This document shows, piece by piece, positions 37,819 to 48,019 of a stretch of 64,000 nt of DNA. The first letter of the stretch is position 1; each line of letters opens with the position of its first letter. This stretch comes from Candidatus Moraniibacteriota bacterium (GTDB lineage: Bacteria; Patescibacteriota; Minisyncoccia; Moranbacterales; UBA1568): the NCBI GenBank assembly GCA_013334575.1, contig JAAXXG010000002.1, positions 69,377 through 133,376 on the forward strand, written 5' to 3'. A program made the position numbers and the translations under genes. The notes beneath the pieces were generated by a model. It had not been told where the DNA came from. It was given only the letters and a program-made list of their open reading frames with translations, and did not search any database.

Positions 37819-39300
37819 CTACGCCTCCAGTCTTTTCCGGAGTATCTCGGAAACCACCTGCGGATTCGCTTTTCCTTTGGTTTCCTTCATCACCTGGCCG
37901 ATGAGGAACTGAAACGCGTTCTGCTTTCCGGCATGGTAATCCTCGACAGACTTCGCGTTCGCGGCAAGAATCGCGTCGACGATGCCTTCGAGCTCCCCCG
38001 TGTCGCTCACCTGCGCGAGATTGAGCCGGTCGATGATATGCGACGGATCGTTATCCTCGCCCTTGAGCATCTCACCGAGGACCGTCTGAGCTGCGCTCGA
38101 ATTGATTTTTCCATCGGCAATTATCACGATGAATTCCGCATAGTTCTCGGGAGTGATTCCCGACTCACTGATGGTTTTTCCGGATTCGACCAGTCGTTTT
38201 CGCAATTCGGTCACGATATAGTTCGCGGCGAGCCGGATCGCCTTCTCCTCCCCGGCGACCAACTCCTTGGAATCTTTCTTTTCTCCGATCTCGCTCACGA
38301 CCGCTTCGAAATAATCCGCGGTCGGCTTCTCGGCGGTGATCACCGAGACCGCTTCAGACGACAGTCCGTATTGCTTCGCAAACCGTTCTTCCTTGGCTGC
38401 CGGCAGTTCGGGAATGGTCAGACGGAGCGCCTCGATGTCCGCTTCCGAAAATGAGAAAGGCGGGATGTCCGGCTCGGGGAAATAGCGGTAATCGTGCGCA
38501 GACTCCTTCTTGCGCTGCGAAACGGTTTTCTGTCCGTTCTCGTCCCATCCGCGCGTCTCCTGTTCGATCTTCTCGCCCGATTCGAGCGCCTTCGTCTGTC
38601 GGGCGATCTCGTATTCGATCGCCCCGGCAACCGCCTTGAACGAGTTGAGGTTCTTCACCTCGACCTTGGTACCGGACAGCCGGTCCTCACCTTCCGCATA
38701 CAGCGAGATATTCGCCTCGCAGCGCATCTGTCCCTTTTCCATGTCCGCGTCCGAAATGTCGAGATACCGGAGGATCTGCCGAAGCTTCTGGCAGAAGAGC
38801 CGCGCGTCGGCGGCGTTGTCGATATCCGGCTCGGTCACGAGTTCCATGAGCGGCACCCCCGAACGGTTCAGGTCGACCAGGGTATGTTTGGTACCGGCGG
38901 GATGATACAGCTTGCCGGTGTCCTCCTCCATGTGGATCCGGGTGATGCCGACCGTCTTGCCCTCGCGGATCGTGAGCGCCCCCTTCCCGCAGAACGGTTC
39001 GTCGTACTGCGAGATCTGGTAGCCTTTCGGAAGATCGGGATAGAAATAGTTCTTGCGGTCGAACTTCGAGTGCCTGGCGAGTTCGCAGCCGAGCGCGAGT
39101 CCGGCCCGCTGCACCGATTCGATTGCCAGCCGGTTCGGAGTCGGAAGCGCTCCGGGCTGTGCGGTACAGACCGGGCAGATGTGTACGTTCGGTTCGGCCT
39201 CCTGTCCGAGACCGTTCCTGCACGAGCAGAACATCTTGGACTCGGTCCGAAGCTCGACATGGACCTCCATACCGATGACGGGAGTGTATTTCATAATCAT
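37819..39300 (-). CDS. gatB: Asp-tRNA(Asn)/Glu-tRNA(Gln) amidotransferase subunit B
   Basis: MIMKYTPVIGMEVHVEL N-terminus and C-terminal GatB/YqeY tail. The upstream ORF extension is Arg-rich read-through. Confidence 0.9.
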   Translation of the reverse strand: MIMKYTPVIGMEVHVELRTESKMFCSCRNGLGQEAEPNVHICPVCTAQPGALPTPNRLAIESVQRAGLALGCELARHSKFDRKNYFYPDLPKGYQISQYDEPFCGKGALTIREGKTVGITRIHMEEDTGKLYHPAGTKHTLVDLNRSGVPLMELVTEPDIDNAADARLFCQKLRQILRYLDISDADMEKGQMRCEANISLYAEGEDRLSGTKVEVKNLNSFKAVAGAIEYEIARQTKALESGEKIEQETRGWDENGQKTVSQRKKESAHDYRYFPEPDIPPFSFSEADIEALRLTIPELPAAKEERFAKQYGLSSEAVSVITAEKPTADYFEAVVSEIGEKKDSKELVAGEEKAIRLAANYIVTELRKRLVESGKTISESGITPENYAEFIVIIADGKINSSAAQTVLGEMLKGEDNDPSHIIDRLNLAQVSDTGELEGIVDAILAANAKSVEDYHAGKQNAFQFLIGQVMKETKGKANPQVVSEILRKRLEA

Positions 39301-39337
39301 ATGACAGATAGCACTGAACGGATGGCGGGGAACGGAG

Positions 39338-39763
39338 TCACTGCCTCCCCGTACTCCCGAAATGCCCCTCTCCGCGTATCGTAGCATCGAGCTCCGAAAC
39401 CTCGCAAACCTCCGGAAGCGCGATCGGCACGACGAGCATCTGGGCGATCCGCTCTCCCGACGCGACCTCATACGGCTCATCCGAGGTGTTGAGCATGATA
39501 ACCTTCCATTCCCCGCGATAGCCGGAATCGATGACGCCGCCGAGATTCGTGATCCCGTGCTTCGCCGCGAGCCCGGACCGGTCCATGATCAGTCCGACGT
39601 ACCCCTCCGGGATCGCGATGGCGACCCCCGTCGGTACGATGCGCCGCTCTCCGGGACCGAGGGCGGATCCCTCCGTCGCGTACAGGTCGAGACCGGCATC
39701 GCCCGGGTGAGCGCGCATCGGTAACACCGCATCCGGATGGAGTCGTTTTATTTCCAGTTTCAT
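39338..39763 (-). CDS. dut: dUTP diphosphatase
   Basis: MKLEIKRLHPDAVLP ... AGLDLYA ... GVIDSGYRGE motifs. 141 aa. 4-nt overlap with tmk. Confidence 0.85.
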   Translation of the reverse strand: MKLEIKRLHPDAVLPMRAHPGDAGLDLYATEGSALGPGERRIVPTGVAIAIPEGYVGLIMDRSGLAAKHGITNLGGVIDSGYRGEWKVIMLNTSDEPYEVASGERIAQMLVVPIALPEVCEVSELDATIRGEGHFGSTGRQ

Positions 39764-40464
39764 AAGAGTCCTTCCACGACTTCGTATACCTTCTCGGCGA
39801 TGTCCTCGCGCGCGAGGAGTTCCCCCTTCCGGACACATTCGACCTGGTGCCAGTCGTTCCGCCTCCGAACGAGCCGAAGCGCGCTCTCGCGGCTTTTCGC
39901 GAGATACCGCTCGTCCGTCTCCAGGGTATCCTTCCGGCTTCCGCCCCGAAGATACGGTTTTTTTGATACTGCCTCCTTCCCGGCCAGGAGGCGTCGCGAT
40001 ACCTCGGTCGGAACATGCAGATGGATGATCGCATCCGGACGCGGCAATCCGAATACGCCGAATTCCATCCGGTCGAGCCATTCGAGAAATTCGCGCCGTT
40101 TCCGCGGCTCGGATATCTTTCCTCCCTGATGGATCTGATTCGAACTCACGTACCGGTCAAGAATGACGACGCATCCGTCTCGGAGCCATCGTTCGATCGT
40201 CGCCTTGGATTCGAACCGGTCGGCCGCATAAAGGACGGAGGTGATCTTCGGGTCAAGACCCGCGAAATCCCCATGTTCACCGGCGAGGCATTCGCCGATC
40301 AATGCTCCGAACAGGTTCGATTCGTATCGCGGAAAATCGAGCATCCGCACGCGATACCCGTCCTTCCGCAGACGGGACAACAGAAGCGCCGCCTGTGTCG
40401 CCTTTCCGGATCCATCGGAGCCGTCGATCACGATGAGTCGCCCCTTGCCGTGCCGCTTCGCCAT
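39760..40464 (-). CDS. tmk: thymidylate kinase
   Basis: P-loop IVIDGSDGSGKATQ, DRY-like DRYVSSN, and a lid region. Confidence 0.85.
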   Translation of the reverse strand: MAKRHGKGRLIVIDGSDGSGKATQAALLLSRLRKDGYRVRMLDFPRYESNLFGALIGECLAGEHGDFAGLDPKITSVLYAADRFESKATIERWLRDGCVVILDRYVSSNQIHQGGKISEPRKRREFLEWLDRMEFGVFGLPRPDAIIHLHVPTEVSRRLLAGKEAVSKKPYLRGGSRKDTLETDERYLAKSRESALRLVRRRNDWHQVECVRKGELLAREDIAEKVYEVVEGLL

Positions 40465-40478
40465 ATATCCGTTTTCAG

Positions 40479-41078
40479 TTATTCGCCCGACTCCGCATCG
40501 CGAAGCCGTTTCCGATCGGAAGCCTCCTTCCGCATCTCTGCGATCGCGGTATCGACCGCCGCATAGAGCTCCTCGAGCGACCCCTCGTTGCCAATCACGT
40601 ACCGGGCCTGTCCCTTGAGCGCGGGAATACCGACTTCGGTCTCGAGCGAATGGTCACGTTTGAAATCCTCGAAAGTCTTGGTATCGTCGTCGGCGTTCTG
40701 TCGGCGTTTCACGATACGCCCGTACCGCGTCTCCATCGATGCCTCGACATAGATGAGCGAGAACTCGGGAAATCCTTTCACGGCCTCGATGTCGGACTGT
40801 CGACGCACACCGTCGATGACCACGAGCGGATTCGGATCCCGCACCGCGTCCTCGGCGATGGCGTGTGAGAGCAGGTTCTCGCCGAAGGCGCTACGGAGCG
40901 CTCCCGAGACCTTCGTCAGGTTCTCCCGGGTCTGCGCGACATGGATCCGGTTCAGGACATCCCGCAGCGGATCGGAAAACATGAACGTCCTCGCGCCGTA
41001 CTGGTTGGCCAGATAGCGTGCGACCGTATCCTTCCCCGAGGCGATCTCGCCCGCGATCCCGACGATGATCTTTCCCAT
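40479..41078 (-). CDS. deoxynucleoside monophosphate kinase, phage T4 gp1-like
   Basis: P-loop IVGIAGEIASGKDTVARYL. The C-terminal VIGNEGSLEELYAAVDTAI closely parallels T4 dNMP kinase VITNDGSLEELFSKIKNTL. Confidence 0.55.
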   Translation of the reverse strand: MGKIIVGIAGEIASGKDTVARYLANQYGARTFMFSDPLRDVLNRIHVAQTRENLTKVSGALRSAFGENLLSHAIAEDAVRDPNPLVVIDGVRRQSDIEAVKGFPEFSLIYVEASMETRYGRIVKRRQNADDDTKTFEDFKRDHSLETEVGIPALKGQARYVIGNEGSLEELYAAVDTAIAEMRKEASDRKRLRDAESGE

Positions 41079-41099: not shown

Positions 41100-42404
41100 T
41101 TATTCGTCCGTCGGCTTCTCCGTGATATCCTGTCCGCCACGACGCACGTCCCAATCGTCCCGGTCCCGGTCGATATGGAGCGCGACATCCGGAAACCGCT
41201 CCGAGATCTCGTCCGCCATCCGCCATGCTACGGGCCGAATGGTCGGATGCACCGTCTTGCCGCTGCGCAGTTCGACGAAGTAGACGAGGGCCGGCAGGTC
41301 GAAGGTGAAGCGGCACGGCACGCGATAGCCCATGGCGACGAGATACTGCCGCTCCTCCGGGTGCGCTCCGATCGCCGCGATGGCCGCCGTCTGCCCGGCG
41401 ATAAGTTCCTCGGCCTCCTTCCGCACCGCCTCCGGCAGCTGATCCAGGTACCACGGATGGAACCCGTGTCGCGTCGAAAGGAGCGGCATGTGATGGATAC
41501 CGGCGCGATGCCGCTGTATGTCACGGTACGAACCGTAGTCGAGCAGGAAGTCGAACGTGAAGGTGCCCGCGTCGCGTACGTACTGCGGCAGGTTCGTCTT
41601 TTGCGGACGCTTCGCGAGGATATCGCGATACGACGCGAGCGCCCCGGCCGAAACCGTCGTCGTAGCACGGAAGTCCGGCGGGAAATCCGCCGGGTCGAAA
41701 TAGGTTTCCGGCGCGAGAACGTCCTCCCGATACGCGTCCTGTTCCGGATAGCGCTTGTGCGAGAAGCTGTTCGGATAGCGCTCCGAAAGTCTCGAAAGGA
41801 CCGTCTCGGCCATCTCGCGGACCTCGGAAAGCGGATGATGCCGCAGAAGCGAGAGTTTGTCCCATGCCTGCCGCAGGTTCGTATGCCACGAAAGCTGCGT
41901 CGTGATACCGGCCGGGAGGAAACCGCGGAGGATATCGAACGTGCGCGCCTTGATCGCCTTGTCGTAGAGCTTCTCGTCCTCGTCCGCGCGACGCGGATAC
42001 TTCACCCGCAGGTGATCCTCGACCGCGGGGCCCGATGCGACATAGAACGAAAGCCACCGTTCCTGTATCGCCCGCGAAGCGTCGTTCCCGACCGGATCGA
42101 TCATCGGCTGACGGCTCATGTCGATATAGCGGGTACTCGTCTCCTGGCCGGAGTACAGCGGCCAGTCCTGGATCGCCTTGTCGCAGAGGATGCTCACTCC
42201 CTCGATGAAGATTGTCGTACTCCCGCAGTCCGCGATCGAATGGTGCCCGTAGCCCACGTAGAACCGCTCCATGAACTTCCCCGATCCGGTCTCCGCGACC
42301 TTCGCGGCGTGGATCTCGACACTCTCGGCGCTCCGGGAATAGAGCGCCTGCATCATTGCGGTATCCTCGGGTCCGTACTCGTCATAGAGGAAGATCTTGG
42401 GCAT
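41100..42404 (-). CDS. thyX: FAD-dependent thymidylate synthase ThyX, tandem-duplicated (two Thy1 domains in one chain)
   Basis: N-domain: GHHSIADCGSTTIFIEGVSILCDKAIQDWPLYSGQETSTRY, with RHR replaced by QDW. C-domain: FTFDFLLDYGSYRDIQRHRAGIHHMPLLSTR plus RFTFDLPALVYFVELRSGKTVHP. Each half also has the FxWTxNxRxL region. Confidence 0.6.
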   Translation of the reverse strand: MPKIFLYDEYGPEDTAMMQALYSRSAESVEIHAAKVAETGSGKFMERFYVGYGHHSIADCGSTTIFIEGVSILCDKAIQDWPLYSGQETSTRYIDMSRQPMIDPVGNDASRAIQERWLSFYVASGPAVEDHLRVKYPRRADEDEKLYDKAIKARTFDILRGFLPAGITTQLSWHTNLRQAWDKLSLLRHHPLSEVREMAETVLSRLSERYPNSFSHKRYPEQDAYREDVLAPETYFDPADFPPDFRATTTVSAGALASYRDILAKRPQKTNLPQYVRDAGTFTFDFLLDYGSYRDIQRHRAGIHHMPLLSTRHGFHPWYLDQLPEAVRKEAEELIAGQTAAIAAIGAHPEERQYLVAMGYRVPCRFTFDLPALVYFVELRSGKTVHPTIRPVAWRMADEISERFPDVALHIDRDRDDWDVRRGGQDITEKPTDE

Positions 42405-42557
42405 AGAGGTTCCCGTTAAGATGACGACCCTAGCACCCTATTTTCGCACGAATCACGACGGGTCGCAAACGTCGCCGCGCAACCGAAAAACGGACGAAAG
42501 TCCGAGAAAAGGAAAAAGCGCCCGCGGTTTCGCGAACGCCCCCTTCCGTTTCCGGGC

Positions 42558-42800
42558 TCAGGCCGTATACGGCGTGATTGCAAGGAATGAGAACTGACCG
42601 ATATTCACGCCTGCCTCAGTATTGAGGTGCGCGACTCGATCTCCTCTTTTTCCGGCGGAACTGATATAGGAAACCACAAAAGGACCTTCCGAATGAGCAT
42701 CCTTTTTATGCCCGTAATCAGGATGGTCGGGATTCCACGTCACCAGATCGCCGACTTCGAACATGACCTTCCTCTCACTCAATTTCTCCGTTTGAGACAT
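42558..42800 (-). CDS. hypothetical small protein
   Basis: 80-aa ORF. Weak support only. Confidence 0.3.
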   Translation of the reverse strand: MSQTEKLSERKVMFEVGDLVTWNPDHPDYGHKKDAHSEGPFVVSYISSAGKRGDRVAHLNTEAGVNIGQFSFLAITPYTA

Positions 42801-43185
42801 AATCCCTCCGCTTTTTTAACTTGCCGATATTCCGTTTTCCGATGCGGGAAATTATCGCACGGACATCGGAACCTGTCAATCGCGATCCCTTCCCGTCGTC
42901 CGTCATCCCTTTGTGTATGAGTGCACGTTCCGTCATTGGAGGAGGACCTGATCTGCATTCACGGATTGACTCGGAATGTGTTCCGTGCTATCGTACCGCT
43001 TTGTGGTCTTCTTTCACAATCGCACGGTGTCCGGCCTTCCTCCCGCCGATATGGTGGGCGGGCGGCCGGACATCGTACCGGCATGCGCTTCGGGCTTCCC
43101 GTCGGAAGGGTCGGCATCATAGTGATGCCTGTATCCTGCCGATTTCCGGCATACCGATGGAACGACCGAATAAACAAATGACGTC

Positions 43186-44864: not shown

Positions 44865-46029
44865 TCAGAGGTTCGTCATGATGGCCTCCCCCATCGCCTC
44901 GGTACCGAGAATCATATCGCGGTTATCAACCAGCCTCGCCAAATCCGCGGTACGATATCCCGCCAAAAGCGTCTTCTCCACCGCCTTCTCGATAGCCCCC
45001 GCACCAACCTTCGCTCCGATATGACGAAGCATCATCGCAGCCGTCAGGATCCGACCGATAGGATTCACCTTATCCTTCCCCTTAAGGTCGCAGGCCGTTC
45101 CCGCTCCGCTCTCGAACATTGCGGAACCGGTTTCCGGATTCACGGCGGAACTGCACATCATACCAAGACTTCCCAGCATGCCAGCAGCGCCGTCGGAGAG
45201 AATGTCGCCGTGTTCGTTTCCGCACATGATGACTCCCGCAAGCTTCATCGGCATGCCGAGCAGTGCGTTCGCCGCATCGACATACAGATGGGAAAGCGGG
45301 ACATCGGGGAATTCTGCCTTTCCGATCTCGGTCGCCATTTTCCGCCACAGTACGTAGCGAGCCATCACGTTCGTCTTATCGATCGAGATGACCGGAAGAC
45401 CGCGCTCCCGGGCATACCAAAACACGGCACGCATGTACTTCAGGAGCGTCTCGCGACGATAATAGGCAAGTTCAACGACCGCCTCCTCATCCCCGACGAC
45501 TTCCTTCTTCAACTTGATCATCAACTGGTCCCGCACTCCGCAACCGATATGATCATACAGATCCGAAGTGCCAAAGTAACTGTCCTCGAGCAGCATCCGG
45601 ACGAAAACCTGTACTATACCATCCGATGGGATATTTTCCGGCCGCACGAGACACAGATGATCCAGCGACTTGTGATAGACGACCGGCCGGAAGTTGAGCA
45701 ACAAGCCCATTTCCTTGCGCAGGGCAAGTAATGCCCGTGCTTCCGGCATCATCTCCGGATGTTTCACGCCGAGCGTCTTATCAATCTCAGTATCCCCCAC
45801 TCCTCCGAAGAAGAGTGTCCCGATCTCCACTGCTCGTTTCAACGACTCGGCAGGAAGCGTATCGCCGAATTCCCTGAAGGCGTTCCACCCCATCGGCGTT
45901 TTTTCGAAGACGATCTCGATACCGTCCTTTTTCGCGGCTTCGATGGCGACCGCACATGCGGCCGCCATCATTTCCGGAGCCGCCCCGTCGCCCGTCACGA
46001 GCGCGATTCGAACTTCCCTTCCTTCTTTC
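44865..46029 (-). CDS. isocitrate/3-isopropylmalate dehydrogenase family (LeuB-like)
   Basis: IALVTGDGAAPEMM, a GSLGMMCSSAV region and a dehydrogenase C-terminus. Start assigned to TTG at 46027-46029, preceded by AAAGGAGGG, to avoid a 115-nt overlap with the upstream gene. Confidence 0.7.
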
Positions 46030-46051
46030 AAGAGTCCCTCCTTTTGTTGAT

Positions 46052-48019
46052 TTACAGCTTTCCTTCCGCCTGCAATCCGGCGGCTGTCTCGAACATGAAC
46101 GGGATGACTCCGCCTTTCCTGAGCAGCTCCTTCTGCAGCCAGGTAAGCTTGAACGGAATCTCCCACATGTCCTCACCCGCCGTACCGACGCGGACCACAC
46201 CCTCGTCCGGAAGCACTTCGACCGTGTCCGGTCGCCTCTCACGCAGGTCATTCATGACCTCGTCCGGGAGTTCGACACACAGCAGGCCGTTCGCAAACAT
46301 GCTGGCACTGAAAATACGTGCGAAGCTCGACGCGATAACGCATGTGATTCCAGCCTCGAAAAGGGACCAAGGAGCATGTTCACGCGACGAACCGCAACCG
46401 AAGTTCTTACCAGCGACCAGTACGCTCGACCGGAACAGCCGTTCCTGTTCCTCCCCGGTCAGGTCGACCCCTTCAAGACAGTGCTGTCCAAGCCCGGTTT
46501 TCACGGACGTCGTCAGGTACTTCGCCGGGATGATGACATCCGTATCGACATTGTCCCCTCTCTTCCCCTGGAGATACAAGACTTTCCCCGAGAACTCCGG
46601 CTTGACCGTGATGCGCGTGGCCCGATGCAGTACGCCGTAGTCCGGCCGACTCAACTCGGTCACCCCATCCCAGTCTGTGAGATTGAGCGGATGACCTTCT
46701 TCGGACATGCTCGCGATATCGTCGAGCACACGTCCACACAGCTCCGGACTCGGCACCGCGACGCTTCCCGTCATGGCCGACAACGCCGCCACCGCCGGAG
46801 AACAGAGATGCACCATACCGCCCTTACCCATCCTTCCCTTGAAGTTCCGGTTACTGGTCGAAATGCACACCTCTCCGGGAGCGAGGACGCCTCCGCTCAT
46901 ACCCAGGCACGGTCCGCACGTCGCTGACATGACGACGCATCCCGCGGCCATGAATACATCGATGAGACCCTCATACAAAGCTCGCCGATAGATATGCTGC
47001 GTCGCCGGAATAACGATACACCGCGTACCGTCAGCGATCCTGCCGCCGAAATCACGCATGATGCCGGCCGCGATGCGCAGGTCTTCCAGGCGTCCGTTCG
47101 TGCAGGATCCGATGAACACCTGCTGAAACGGCATACCCTCCAGATCGGACGCTGGCACGACATCGGCCGGGGTATACTCCACCGTGATGAGCGGCTGCCT
47201 GTCAGTCACGTCGATCGTGATGACCTGATTATACTCGGCATTCGGGTCGCTGTTCCACGCCAGCAATTCCTCTTCCTCATATCCCGCCGACTCGATGAGC
47301 GGCCGCAGATATTCGATGGTCTTGTCGTCCACCGCCACCATACCGGATGTCGCCCCGGCCTCGACCACCATGTTCGTCATGGTCATCCTCGCCTCCATGC
47401 TGAGCGCCTCCACGACCGGCCCGCCGAATTCGATGACCGCATTCGTCGCGCCGGCAACTCCCATCACCTCGATCAGCATCAGGATGAGGTCCTTGGCGAA
47501 CACGTTCGCCGGGAGTGTCCCGACATACTCGACGCGGATCACCCGCTGAGGCTGACAGAACCAGAGCTCGGTCGAAACGGCCGCCATCATCTCCGAAGTC
47601 CCGACTCCCGCGGTAAGCGCACCGAACGCGCCACCGGTACAGGTATGACTGTCACCCATGACGGCAATCTGCCCCGGGAACAGCCACCCGCTCTCGGGAA
47701 AAAGCGCGTGACAAACGCCCCCCTGCCCCGCATCGCGGAATTCGATGCCGTGTTCCTTACACCATTTTCGCAGCGTATCGGCCTGAAACGCCGTCGCCTC
47801 GTCGTTGGACGGGCAGACGTGGTCGATCGTCGCTTTTATCCTGTTCGGATCGAATACCACGTCACAGCCGCGGGCCTTCATGTCCACGATACCAGGAGGC
47901 GTCGTGATTTCATGACAGAAGACCTGATCCACTTTCAGCACCATGGTCCCGTCCGGAAGCGTTTTCAGCAAATGCGCATCGACGATTTTCTGATACGCCG
48001 TTTTTCCTCGTTTCTGCAT
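46052..48019 (-). CDS. aconitase-family hydro-lyase, fused large+small subunit (LeuC/LeuD-like)
   Basis: 655 aa. Fe-S cluster cysteines in GSCTNGR and TCGPCLG contexts, and a LeuD-like swivel domain at the C-terminus. Confidence 0.8.
   Translation of the reverse strand: MQKRGKTAYQKIVDAHLLKTLPDGTMVLKVDQVFCHEITTPPGIVDMKARGCDVVFDPNRIKATIDHVCPSNDEATAFQADTLRKWCKEHGIEFRDAGQGGVCHALFPESGWLFPGQIAVMGDSHTCTGGAFGALTAGVGTSEMMAAVSTELWFCQPQRVIRVEYVGTLPANVFAKDLILMLIEVMGVAGATNAVIEFGGPVVEALSMEARMTMTNMVVEAGATSGMVAVDDKTIEYLRPLIESAGYEEEELLAWNSDPNAEYNQVITIDVTDRQPLITVEYTPADVVPASDLEGMPFQQVFIGSCTNGRLEDLRIAAGIMRDFGGRIADGTRCIVIPATQHIYRRALYEGLIDVFMAAGCVVMSATCGPCLGMSGGVLAPGEVCISTSNRNFKGRMGKGGMVHLCSPAVAALSAMTGSVAVPSPELCGRVLDDIASMSEEGHPLNLTDWDGVTELSRPDYGVLHRATRITVKPEFSGKVLYLQGKRGDNVDTDVIIPAKYLTTSVKTGLGQHCLEGVDLTGEEQERLFRSSVLVAGKNFGCGSSREHAPWSLFEAGITCVIASSFARIFSASMFANGLLCVELPDEVMNDLRERRPDTVEVLPDEGVVRVGTAGEDMWEIPFKLTWLQKELLRKGGVIPFMFETAAGLQAEGKL

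Follow-up and report, generated by a model that had tools for sequence, protein, structure and literature searches.

A predicted fusion of two divergent ThyX domains that share out the active-site residues of one flavin-dependent thymidylate synthase in a Candidatus Moranbacteria genome

We describe a double-length, thyX-like gene in a 64,000-nucleotide stretch of DNA from a Candidatus Moraniibacteriota bacterium (contig JAAXXG010000002.1, positions 69,377 to 133,376 of the forward strand; hereafter the window). The open reading frame (ORF), taken from an ORF listing and matched by Pfam Thy1, lies at 41100-42404 on the minus strand, starts with ATG and runs uninterrupted for 434 aa, exactly as described in an earlier reading made from the letters alone (the sequence-only reading). 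To judge from its alignments and its predicted fold, the gene encodes, in one chain, two very divergent domains of ThyX, the flavin-dependent thymidylate synthase, which produces deoxythymidine monophosphate (dTMP) from deoxyuridine monophosphate (dUMP), methylenetetrahydrofolate and NADPH. The interpretation that we favour, and consider probable, is that of a functional flavin-dependent thymidylate synthase in which the fused, divergent domains would assemble as a dimer with two composite sites and feed dTMP to the thymidylate kinase Tmk. The known chemistry would be left unchanged by this; the advance is structural and evolutionary, with no new function.

Two divergent domains and a divided active site

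The window protein is a 100% match to HGA38_03640, annotated as a "hypothetical protein" in a metagenome-assembled genome (MAG) of Candidatus Moranbacteria. In the case of the whole protein, Pfam Thy1 (PF02511) matched in two stretches at 2.9e-26 and 92.9 bits, with a gathering cut-off of 24.8. When the halves were scanned separately, both exceeded this cut-off, so that the two Thy1 folds originally proposed could be confirmed: the N half (residues 1-219) scored 65.8 bits (5.9e-18) over profile positions 13-191, and the C half (residues 220-434) scored 31.3 bits (2.2e-7) over profile positions 59-190 only. The N-terminal domain corresponds to 41748-42404 on the minus strand; Pfam and the alignments to the ThyX structures of Mycobacterium tuberculosis (Mtb, PDB 3gwc) and Thermotoga maritima (Tm) indicate that it has no RHR motif and that its dUMP-binding and catalytic loop residues are kept. 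The strongly diverged C-terminal domain corresponds to 41103-41747 on the same strand, as supported by Pfam, by hhalign and by the topology of an AlphaFold2 model. This model, built from 30 homologues, has a mean predicted local distance difference test (pLDDT) score of 86 and a predicted template modelling score of 0.86, and the order of strands and helices is alike in both halves. In a Foldseek search of the PDB, all matches with E <= 0.001 and all 50 matches listed were single-domain ThyX or PolB, and a two-domain ThyX structure was not found among the matches listed.

The two halves are far apart from each other. A BLASTP comparison between them gave no significant similarity, and hhalign of the two domain profiles gave a weak match (E 0.0058). 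Because this direct comparison is null or weak, the homology of the two domains rests on Pfam, on hhalign to T. maritima ThyX and on the AlphaFold2 topology. The distance to characterised proteins is likewise large, with phmmer of the window protein against the PDB reaching Mtb ThyX at E 0.04. Within the family, Pfam finds the C domain in five of 22 members and misses it in the other 17, and most relatives show a single Thy1 stretch, N-terminal in position. Since the C-terminal domain is mostly missed in this way, about 200 residues of a protein that is common in the candidate phyla radiation (CPR), in Acidobacteriota and in phages are effectively unannotated. That the C-terminal domain could be unrelated to ThyX was considered and rejected, given a Pfam score above the gathering threshold, an ungapped FTF..R..RHR match and an LR...H match to T. 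maritima ThyX.

To place the active-site residues, both domains were mapped with HMMER and hhalign onto the ThyX proteins of Mtb and T. maritima, the sequence of the latter having been confirmed to be that of PDB 1kq4. With the N-domain profile, E values of 1.4e-7 against 3gwc and of 1.9e-4 against T. maritima ThyX (hhalign) were obtained. From these alignments, the N domain carries the GHxS block as G53-H54-H55-S56 (42237-42248; this and all following residue coordinates are on the minus strand), in which H54 corresponds to Tm H53 and S56 to Tm T55 and Mtb S71, a contact of the phosphates of flavin adenine dinucleotide (FAD). At the canonical position of the RHR motif (Tm R78-H79-R80) the motif is lost and D80-W81-P82 is found instead (42159-42167), in agreement with the replacement of RHR noticed earlier in this domain. 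The dUMP loop and catalytic lid follow as Q87-E88-T89-S90-T91-R92-Y93 (42126-42146), with E88 equivalent to Tm E86 and Mtb Q103, S90 to Tm S88 and Mtb S105, R92 to Tm R90 and Mtb R107, and Y93 to Tm Y91 and Mtb Y108. Further towards the end of the domain, R160 (41925-41927) aligns with Tm R147 and Mtb R172, where the C domain has an invariant Q353, and R178 (41871-41873) aligns with Tm R165 and Mtb R190, an arginine on the FAD phosphates from a second subunit, where the C domain has P371. H190 is the equivalent of Tm H178, and L186 occupies the position of Tm R174 and Mtb R199.

The C domain presents the other part of this pattern. Its N-terminal part is a gap-free match to Tm F62-T63-F64...R74...R78-H79-R80, which places R298-H299-R300 (41505-41513) as the ThyX RHR motif and R294-D295, four residues before it, as the equivalents of Tm R74-Q75. 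In E378-L379-R380 (41265-41273), hhalign puts R380 at Tm R174 and Mtb R199, the dUMP-activating arginine. The C domain thus keeps the RHR flavin and phosphate motif and the R74 and R174 equivalents, and only these; the GHxS block, the arginine of SxRY and the equivalents of R147 and R165 are missing. Altogether, the full set of Tm H53, R78, H79, R80, S88, R90, Y91, R147, R165 and R174 is present somewhere in the polypeptide: the N domain supplies H54, S90, R92, Y93, R160 and R178, and the C domain supplies R298, H299, R300 and R380. A contiguous R-H-R-x7-8-S-x-R-Y motif does not occur within one domain; it is present, but divided over both. With the motif divided between the domains, a single domain would be unable to supply all the roles. 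The degeneration of the two halves is, as far as can be read from the residues, complementary, and neither half would be able to form a site alone.

This division is a property of the family and could be followed in a sample of 110 diverse members with 38-79% identity. Each of the ten residues named above is kept in 93 to 110 of them. The RHR motif occurs in none of the N domains as opposed to 101 of the C domains (109 when R[HQ]R is allowed), GH.S in 93 N domains and in no C domain, and E.S.RY in 106 N domains and again in no C domain. S56, S90, R92, R294, R298, R300, R380 and H386 are invariant (110/110), and conservation is also high for Y93 (108), H54 (107), R160 (105), H299 (102) and R178 (93). 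At and near the R174 position of the N domain residues are variable, as seen in L186 and in R188, which is an arginine in 35 members. In the window protein the RHR of the C domain is followed by S310-T-R312-H; however, R312, which would complete the classical motif there, is an arginine in only 15 of the 110, and neither the serine nor the arginine of SxR after RHR is conserved in the family.

These counts modify several points of the sequence-only reading. It had placed a GH..S block in each half, which holds for the N half; in the C half the block is absent, and the Pfam match begins there at profile position 59. It had also regarded the ThyX signature as intact in the C domain only. This applies to RHR, but the S-x-R-Y part is invariant only in the N domain, the C domain having failed to conserve it. 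Finally, it had treated the N domain as the one with a dead motif. This view of a dead copy has to be rejected, as the N domain is the better-conserved half, with a mean pairwise identity of 44.4% versus 32.4% in the C domain and the higher value in 99.4% of pairs, and as it carries the catalytic loop together with the equivalents of Tm H53, E86, S88, R90, Y91, R147 and R165.

Predicted assembly and the fate of the degenerate positions

Reviews describe ThyX solely as a homotetramer of identical subunits, and this antibacterial target is presented in them with four identical sites, three subunits contributing to each. In the case of Mtb ThyX, subunit A gives RHR 95-97 and R199 to a site, S71 and R190 of subunit B contact the FAD phosphates, and subunit C directs Q103, R87, S105, R107 and the lid residue Y108 toward dUMP and flavin (PMC6514825). 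Catalytic roles of Tm R174, S88, R90 and Y91 have been described (PMC8316439, PMC11940539), R174 being the dUMP-activating arginine (PMC8316439). When our mapping and the 110 members are compared with these roles, the residues of the subunit-A role are kept in the C domain only, and those of the subunit-B and subunit-C roles in the N domain only.

A simple assembly would accommodate this distribution. Two chains could form a pseudo-tetramer in which the C domains take the diagonal positions A and D and the N domains the positions B and C. In a tetramer of 222 symmetry each of the four sites draws on three subunits, in the combinations (A;B;C), (B;A;D), (C;D;A) and (D;C;B). The first and the last of these would be complete, each with a single C domain and the two N domains, and the second and third would be wholly degenerate. 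The expectation would then be a single FAD and a single active site for each 434-aa chain. We prefer this homodimeric pseudo-tetramer with two composite sites because other placements of the domains give no complete site, which is unlikely for a protein with invariant catalytic residues under purifying selection. Dimerisation, domain placement, the number of sites and catalytic activity are thus what we infer from the residue pattern. The halving of active sites suggested by the sequence-only reading agrees with this pattern insofar as it fits half the usual number per ThyX domain; it would arise from two incomplete domains and not, as assumed there, from the N domain alone, and the number itself is a prediction.

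Several points weigh against this interpretation. Firstly, the NCBIfam equivalog model for thyX (TIGR02170) matches the N domain only, with 40.2 bits (E 2.6e-10), and its cut-off of 87.9 is not reached; the Acidobacteriota and phage relatives described below likewise score under this cut-off. Secondly, a search of PDB sequences with the C-domain profile gave zero matches at E <= 1, and the hhalign alignment of that profile with T. maritima ThyX is weak (E 0.004), covering the C-terminal 83 columns in a consistent register. Thirdly, the placement of the domains in the assembly depends on an argument by exclusion, all other arrangements leaving every site incomplete. Lastly, the chain that gives Tm R147 to a site is presumed, a published assignment not having been found.

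Compared with the canonical homotetramers of T. maritima (TM0449, 1kq4/1o26) and Mtb (Rv2754c, 3gwc/2af6), the window protein is alike in the Thy1 fold, in the residues of one site and in the pathway context. It differs in that one chain of two domains of about 215 aa stands in place of identical subunits of about 220 aa, and in that two sites are predicted per four domains instead of four. A 2004 study in PNAS, as related by papers that cite it, reportedly found that different subunits give different residues to one ThyX site. By natural fusion, this principle of residues from different subunits has apparently been made permanent and hard-wired in two unlike domains. The subunit contributions are thereby sorted, and each role becomes mutable independently. 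A ThyX with a split motif also lets questions of half-of-sites behaviour and of communication between sites be approached.

Our search of the literature for tandem, fused, two-domain or duplicated ThyX, or for ThyX in CPR or Patescibacteria, returned nothing relevant, and the ThyX reviews and phylogeny papers found make no mention of duplication or fusion. The complementary split of active-site residues and its consequence for the number of sites appear to be undescribed. A chlamydial ThyX of about 529 aa, roughly twice the usual length, was reportedly characterised biochemically and found active by Griffin et al. in 2005. Should this protein belong to the same superfamily, it would show directly that a tandem ThyX can be active, and the existence and the activity of a double-length ThyX would not be new.

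Conservation in the family extends to positions that have no canonical catalytic role. In the N domain Q79, D80, K76, S23-R24 and D157 are strongly kept, and in the C domain R266-P267, W318-Y319, Y375, R390 and the tail residues R422-G423. The C-terminal tail W418-D-V-R-R422-G423-x-Q425-D-I427 (41124-41153), to which nothing in canonical ThyX corresponds, is almost invariant, with R422 in 110, G423 in 108 and I427 in 108 of the 110 members; in the AlphaFold2 model pLDDT falls below 50 at residues 423-431. Such conservation in both domains and in the tail, together with an N domain that is more conserved than would be expected of a half merely lending its loops, could be explained if the protein were an active ThyX whose pseudo-sites had been re-used, for instance to bind NADPH or folate or an allosteric nucleotide, or were plugged by the C-terminal tail, so that regulation was added. 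We regard this explanation as rather unlikely. A ligand-binding motif was not identified, W81 and P82 vary in the wider family and K76 is not kept in the phage homologues; moreover, these conserved positions may just as well belong to the domain interface or to the live sites.

A more far-reaching proposal, to which we give little weight, is that the enzyme is obligately asymmetric and that its degenerate positions have turned into a new functional site, for instance for docking of NADPH or folate or for sensing an allosteric nucleotide, of which the R-G-x-Q-D-I tail would form a part. If this were true, the reductive and the methylation half-reactions, which canonical ThyX carries out in one pocket, would be separated.

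Relatives, operon and pathway

The window gene is typical of a very large family that is already named ThyX in databases. A word-indexed search gave more than 4000 homologues, and nearly all of the best 120 homologues listed are about 430 aa long, with 99% query coverage and 59-100% identity. An exhaustive search of representatives at 50% identity gave 2118 clusters at E <= 1e-3, of which 539 were at <= 1e-30; the best 150 of the 2118 representatives are mostly of tandem length, and the shorter ones align to part of the query only. When one genome per GTDB species was scanned, at least 593 stretches encoding the protein were detected, so that the survey of related genomes suggested earlier did recover the same fusion. 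Informative titles among the GTDB matches listed are from Patescibacteria/CPR (Moran-, Falkow-, Uhr- and Paceibacterota, Parcubacteria). Many CPR-type MAG loci (L007, L009, L014-L016, L019 and others) bear titles such as 'uncultured Gammaproteobacteria', 'Bdellovibrionales' or 'Bacillota'. Automated submission probably gave these loci a placeholder or incorrect taxon, and the titles were not taken as a distribution beyond CPR.

Outside CPR, a tblastn search of phage genomes yielded full-length homologues with 24-34% identity in genomes of 108-309 kb. These are tandem ThyX proteins of 461 aa in the Vibrio jumbo phage vB_VmeM-Yong (L081, 3923-5308; "hypothetical protein"), of 480 aa in the Vibrio jumbo phage BONAISHI (L083, 2884-4326), of 518 aa in the Tunturiibacter phage Tunturi_5 (L082, 3965-5521) and of 472 aa in the Microcystis phage Mvi-JY20 (L084, 2917-4335). 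The invariant columns persist in all four. The label "hypothetical protein", which the window protein bears, is also found on the Vibrio and Microcystis phage copies. Used as a query, the Tunturi_5 protein retrieved a very large set of proteins of 515-530 aa called "FAD-dependent thymidylate synthase", the named ones among them being from Terriglobales/Acidobacteriia. The Acidobacteriota members of the family (P0280-P0399; L085, 6001-7551) include one that adjoins recA on a 3.7-Mb contig. All 115 Acidobacteriota-type proteins have S.RY in the first half and confine RHR to the second, and ten of them also show S.R[YF] in the second half.

We defined a superfamily of long, split-motif ThyX by a chain of two Thy1-like halves in which RHR and the R174 equivalent are confined to the second half and GHxS and ExSxRY to the first. 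It comprises the window protein together with 110 CPR-type, four phage and 115 Acidobacteriota-type proteins. The long ThyX of Acidobacteriota (about 515-530 aa) and of large phages is like the window protein in the order of its N and C domains, with ExSxRY in the first half and RHR in the second; it is unlike it in its 24-35% identity and its longer interdomain linker, the CPR form being the most compact (about 430 aa). The labels of these long proteins vary between ThyX, thymidylate synthase and hypothetical protein.

Some relatives are fused to further domains. P0073 (627 aa) and P0115 (638 aa) carry an N-terminal deoxycytidine monophosphate (dCMP) deaminase domain (PF00383) before the two-domain ThyX and are thus triple fusions, which, judging by their domain content, would channel dCMP via dUMP to dTMP in one chain. 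A different case is P0148 (590 aa), which aligns to query residues 3-340 only and continues with an OB-fold tRNA_anti-codon domain (PF01336); the alternatives here are a chimeric contig and a fusion of another kind.

In the window, thyX is followed in one direction by a kinase gene, tmk, dut and then gatB. The gene directly downstream of thyX (40479-41078, minus strand) encodes a P-loop nucleotide kinase of 199 aa with Pfam AAA_17 and DNMK matches and a PRK08356-like NCBIfam match of 2.6e-31 that is under the cut-off; it is a possible deoxynucleoside monophosphate kinase or dCMP/dUMP kinase. Next come the thymidylate kinase gene tmk (39760-40464, minus strand; 234 aa; Pfam Thymidylate_kin 5.4e-18) and the dUTPase gene dut (39338-39763, minus strand; 141 aa with its ATG at 39763; Pfam dUTPase 5.3e-33), whose start overlaps with the stop codon of tmk by 4 nt. 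When 80 related loci were searched with tblastn, 56 had the kinase, 51 tmk, 45 dut and 49 gatB, for the most part in the same order downstream of thyX, and in most of its 56 loci the kinase lies immediately 3' of thyX. In the phage Tunturi_5, the tandem thyX directly follows a dCMP deaminase gene, and a dUTPase gene is close upstream on the opposite strand.

From this arrangement, the co-transcribed dUTPase, or in some relatives the fused dCMP deaminase, would supply dUMP, which ThyX would convert to dTMP for the co-transcribed thymidylate kinase. Because the thyX-kinase-tmk-dut operon is conserved and fusions to dCMP deaminase exist, dTMP synthesis is supported, and the gene context argues for ordinary thymidylate synthesis. 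Within the CPR, with their minimal metabolism, a compact and conserved operon leading from dUMP via dTMP to deoxythymidine diphosphate (dTDP) is confirmed. In a COG census, ThyX was present in six of six Acidobacteria genomes and ThyA in none of the six (PMC5954106). This would fit the long form as a sole thymidylate synthase in Acidobacteriota. In the sequence-only reading, asymmetric sites that bind a different substrate had been put forward as an option. This finds no support, as the residues of one canonical site are all kept and the context is that of dUMP to dTMP to dTDP.

A related alternative is that the protein has a diverged activity on the ThyX fold, such as a C5-methylase or hydroxymethylase of UMP or dCMP in the manner of PolB, and is not the thymidylate synthase of the cell. 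The score under the TIGR02170 cut-off and the great distance from characterised ThyX (the phmmer result given above) point in this direction, as does PolB (4p5b) among the fold matches. PolB, the polyoxin UMP/dUMP C5-methylase (4p5a/4p5b), does share the ThyX fold, but it has a single domain and belongs to a secondary-metabolite context, in contrast to the dut-tmk operon of the window gene. With the residues of one canonical dUMP/FAD site all retained, with the operon containing dut and tmk conserved, with fusions to a deaminase that makes dUMP, and, indirectly, with the long form apparently being the only ThyX-type gene in Acidobacteria without ThyA, we consider such a diverged activity very unlikely.

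A spurious origin of the fusion by frameshift, by mis-assembly or by read-through of two adjacent thyX genes, the first two of which had been named at the outset as possible grounds for refutation, is excluded for practical purposes by its wide distribution, for although the window comes from a MAG, nothing in positive support of an artefact was found, the ORF is uninterrupted, the homologues are nearly all full-length among the best listed, and the same architecture recurs across the species genomes and in finished phage genomes.

Flanking signals and other genes of the window

Upstream of thyX, a consensus scan found two terminator-like hairpins (42491-42544, minus strand). They probably end the transcript of a preceding small ORF, in which case the thyX operon would start after them. 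This ORF of 80 aa (42558-42800, minus strand) has no Pfam match. It is preceded by a sigma-70-like promoter at 42851-42879 on the minus strand (TTGACA, a 17-nt spacer and GATAAT, 11 of 12 positions, with an extended TG) and followed by a terminator-like hairpin with a 14-bp stem at 42513-42544. At the other end of the operon, the mechanically called gatB ORF (37819-39480, minus strand) has an N-terminal extension of 60 residues, rich in arginine and serine, that overlaps dut; the real start of gatB is probably the ATG at 39300 (MIMKYTP...), giving 493 aa.

No tRNA or tmRNA genes were found by ARAGORN in the whole 64-kb window (1-64000). At 44865-48019 on the minus strand, a gene of the isocitrate/isopropylmalate dehydrogenase family (433 aa) adjoins a single-chain gene of the aconitase family (655 aa) that has both the large and the small domain, a notable presence in a CPR genome of otherwise minimal metabolism.

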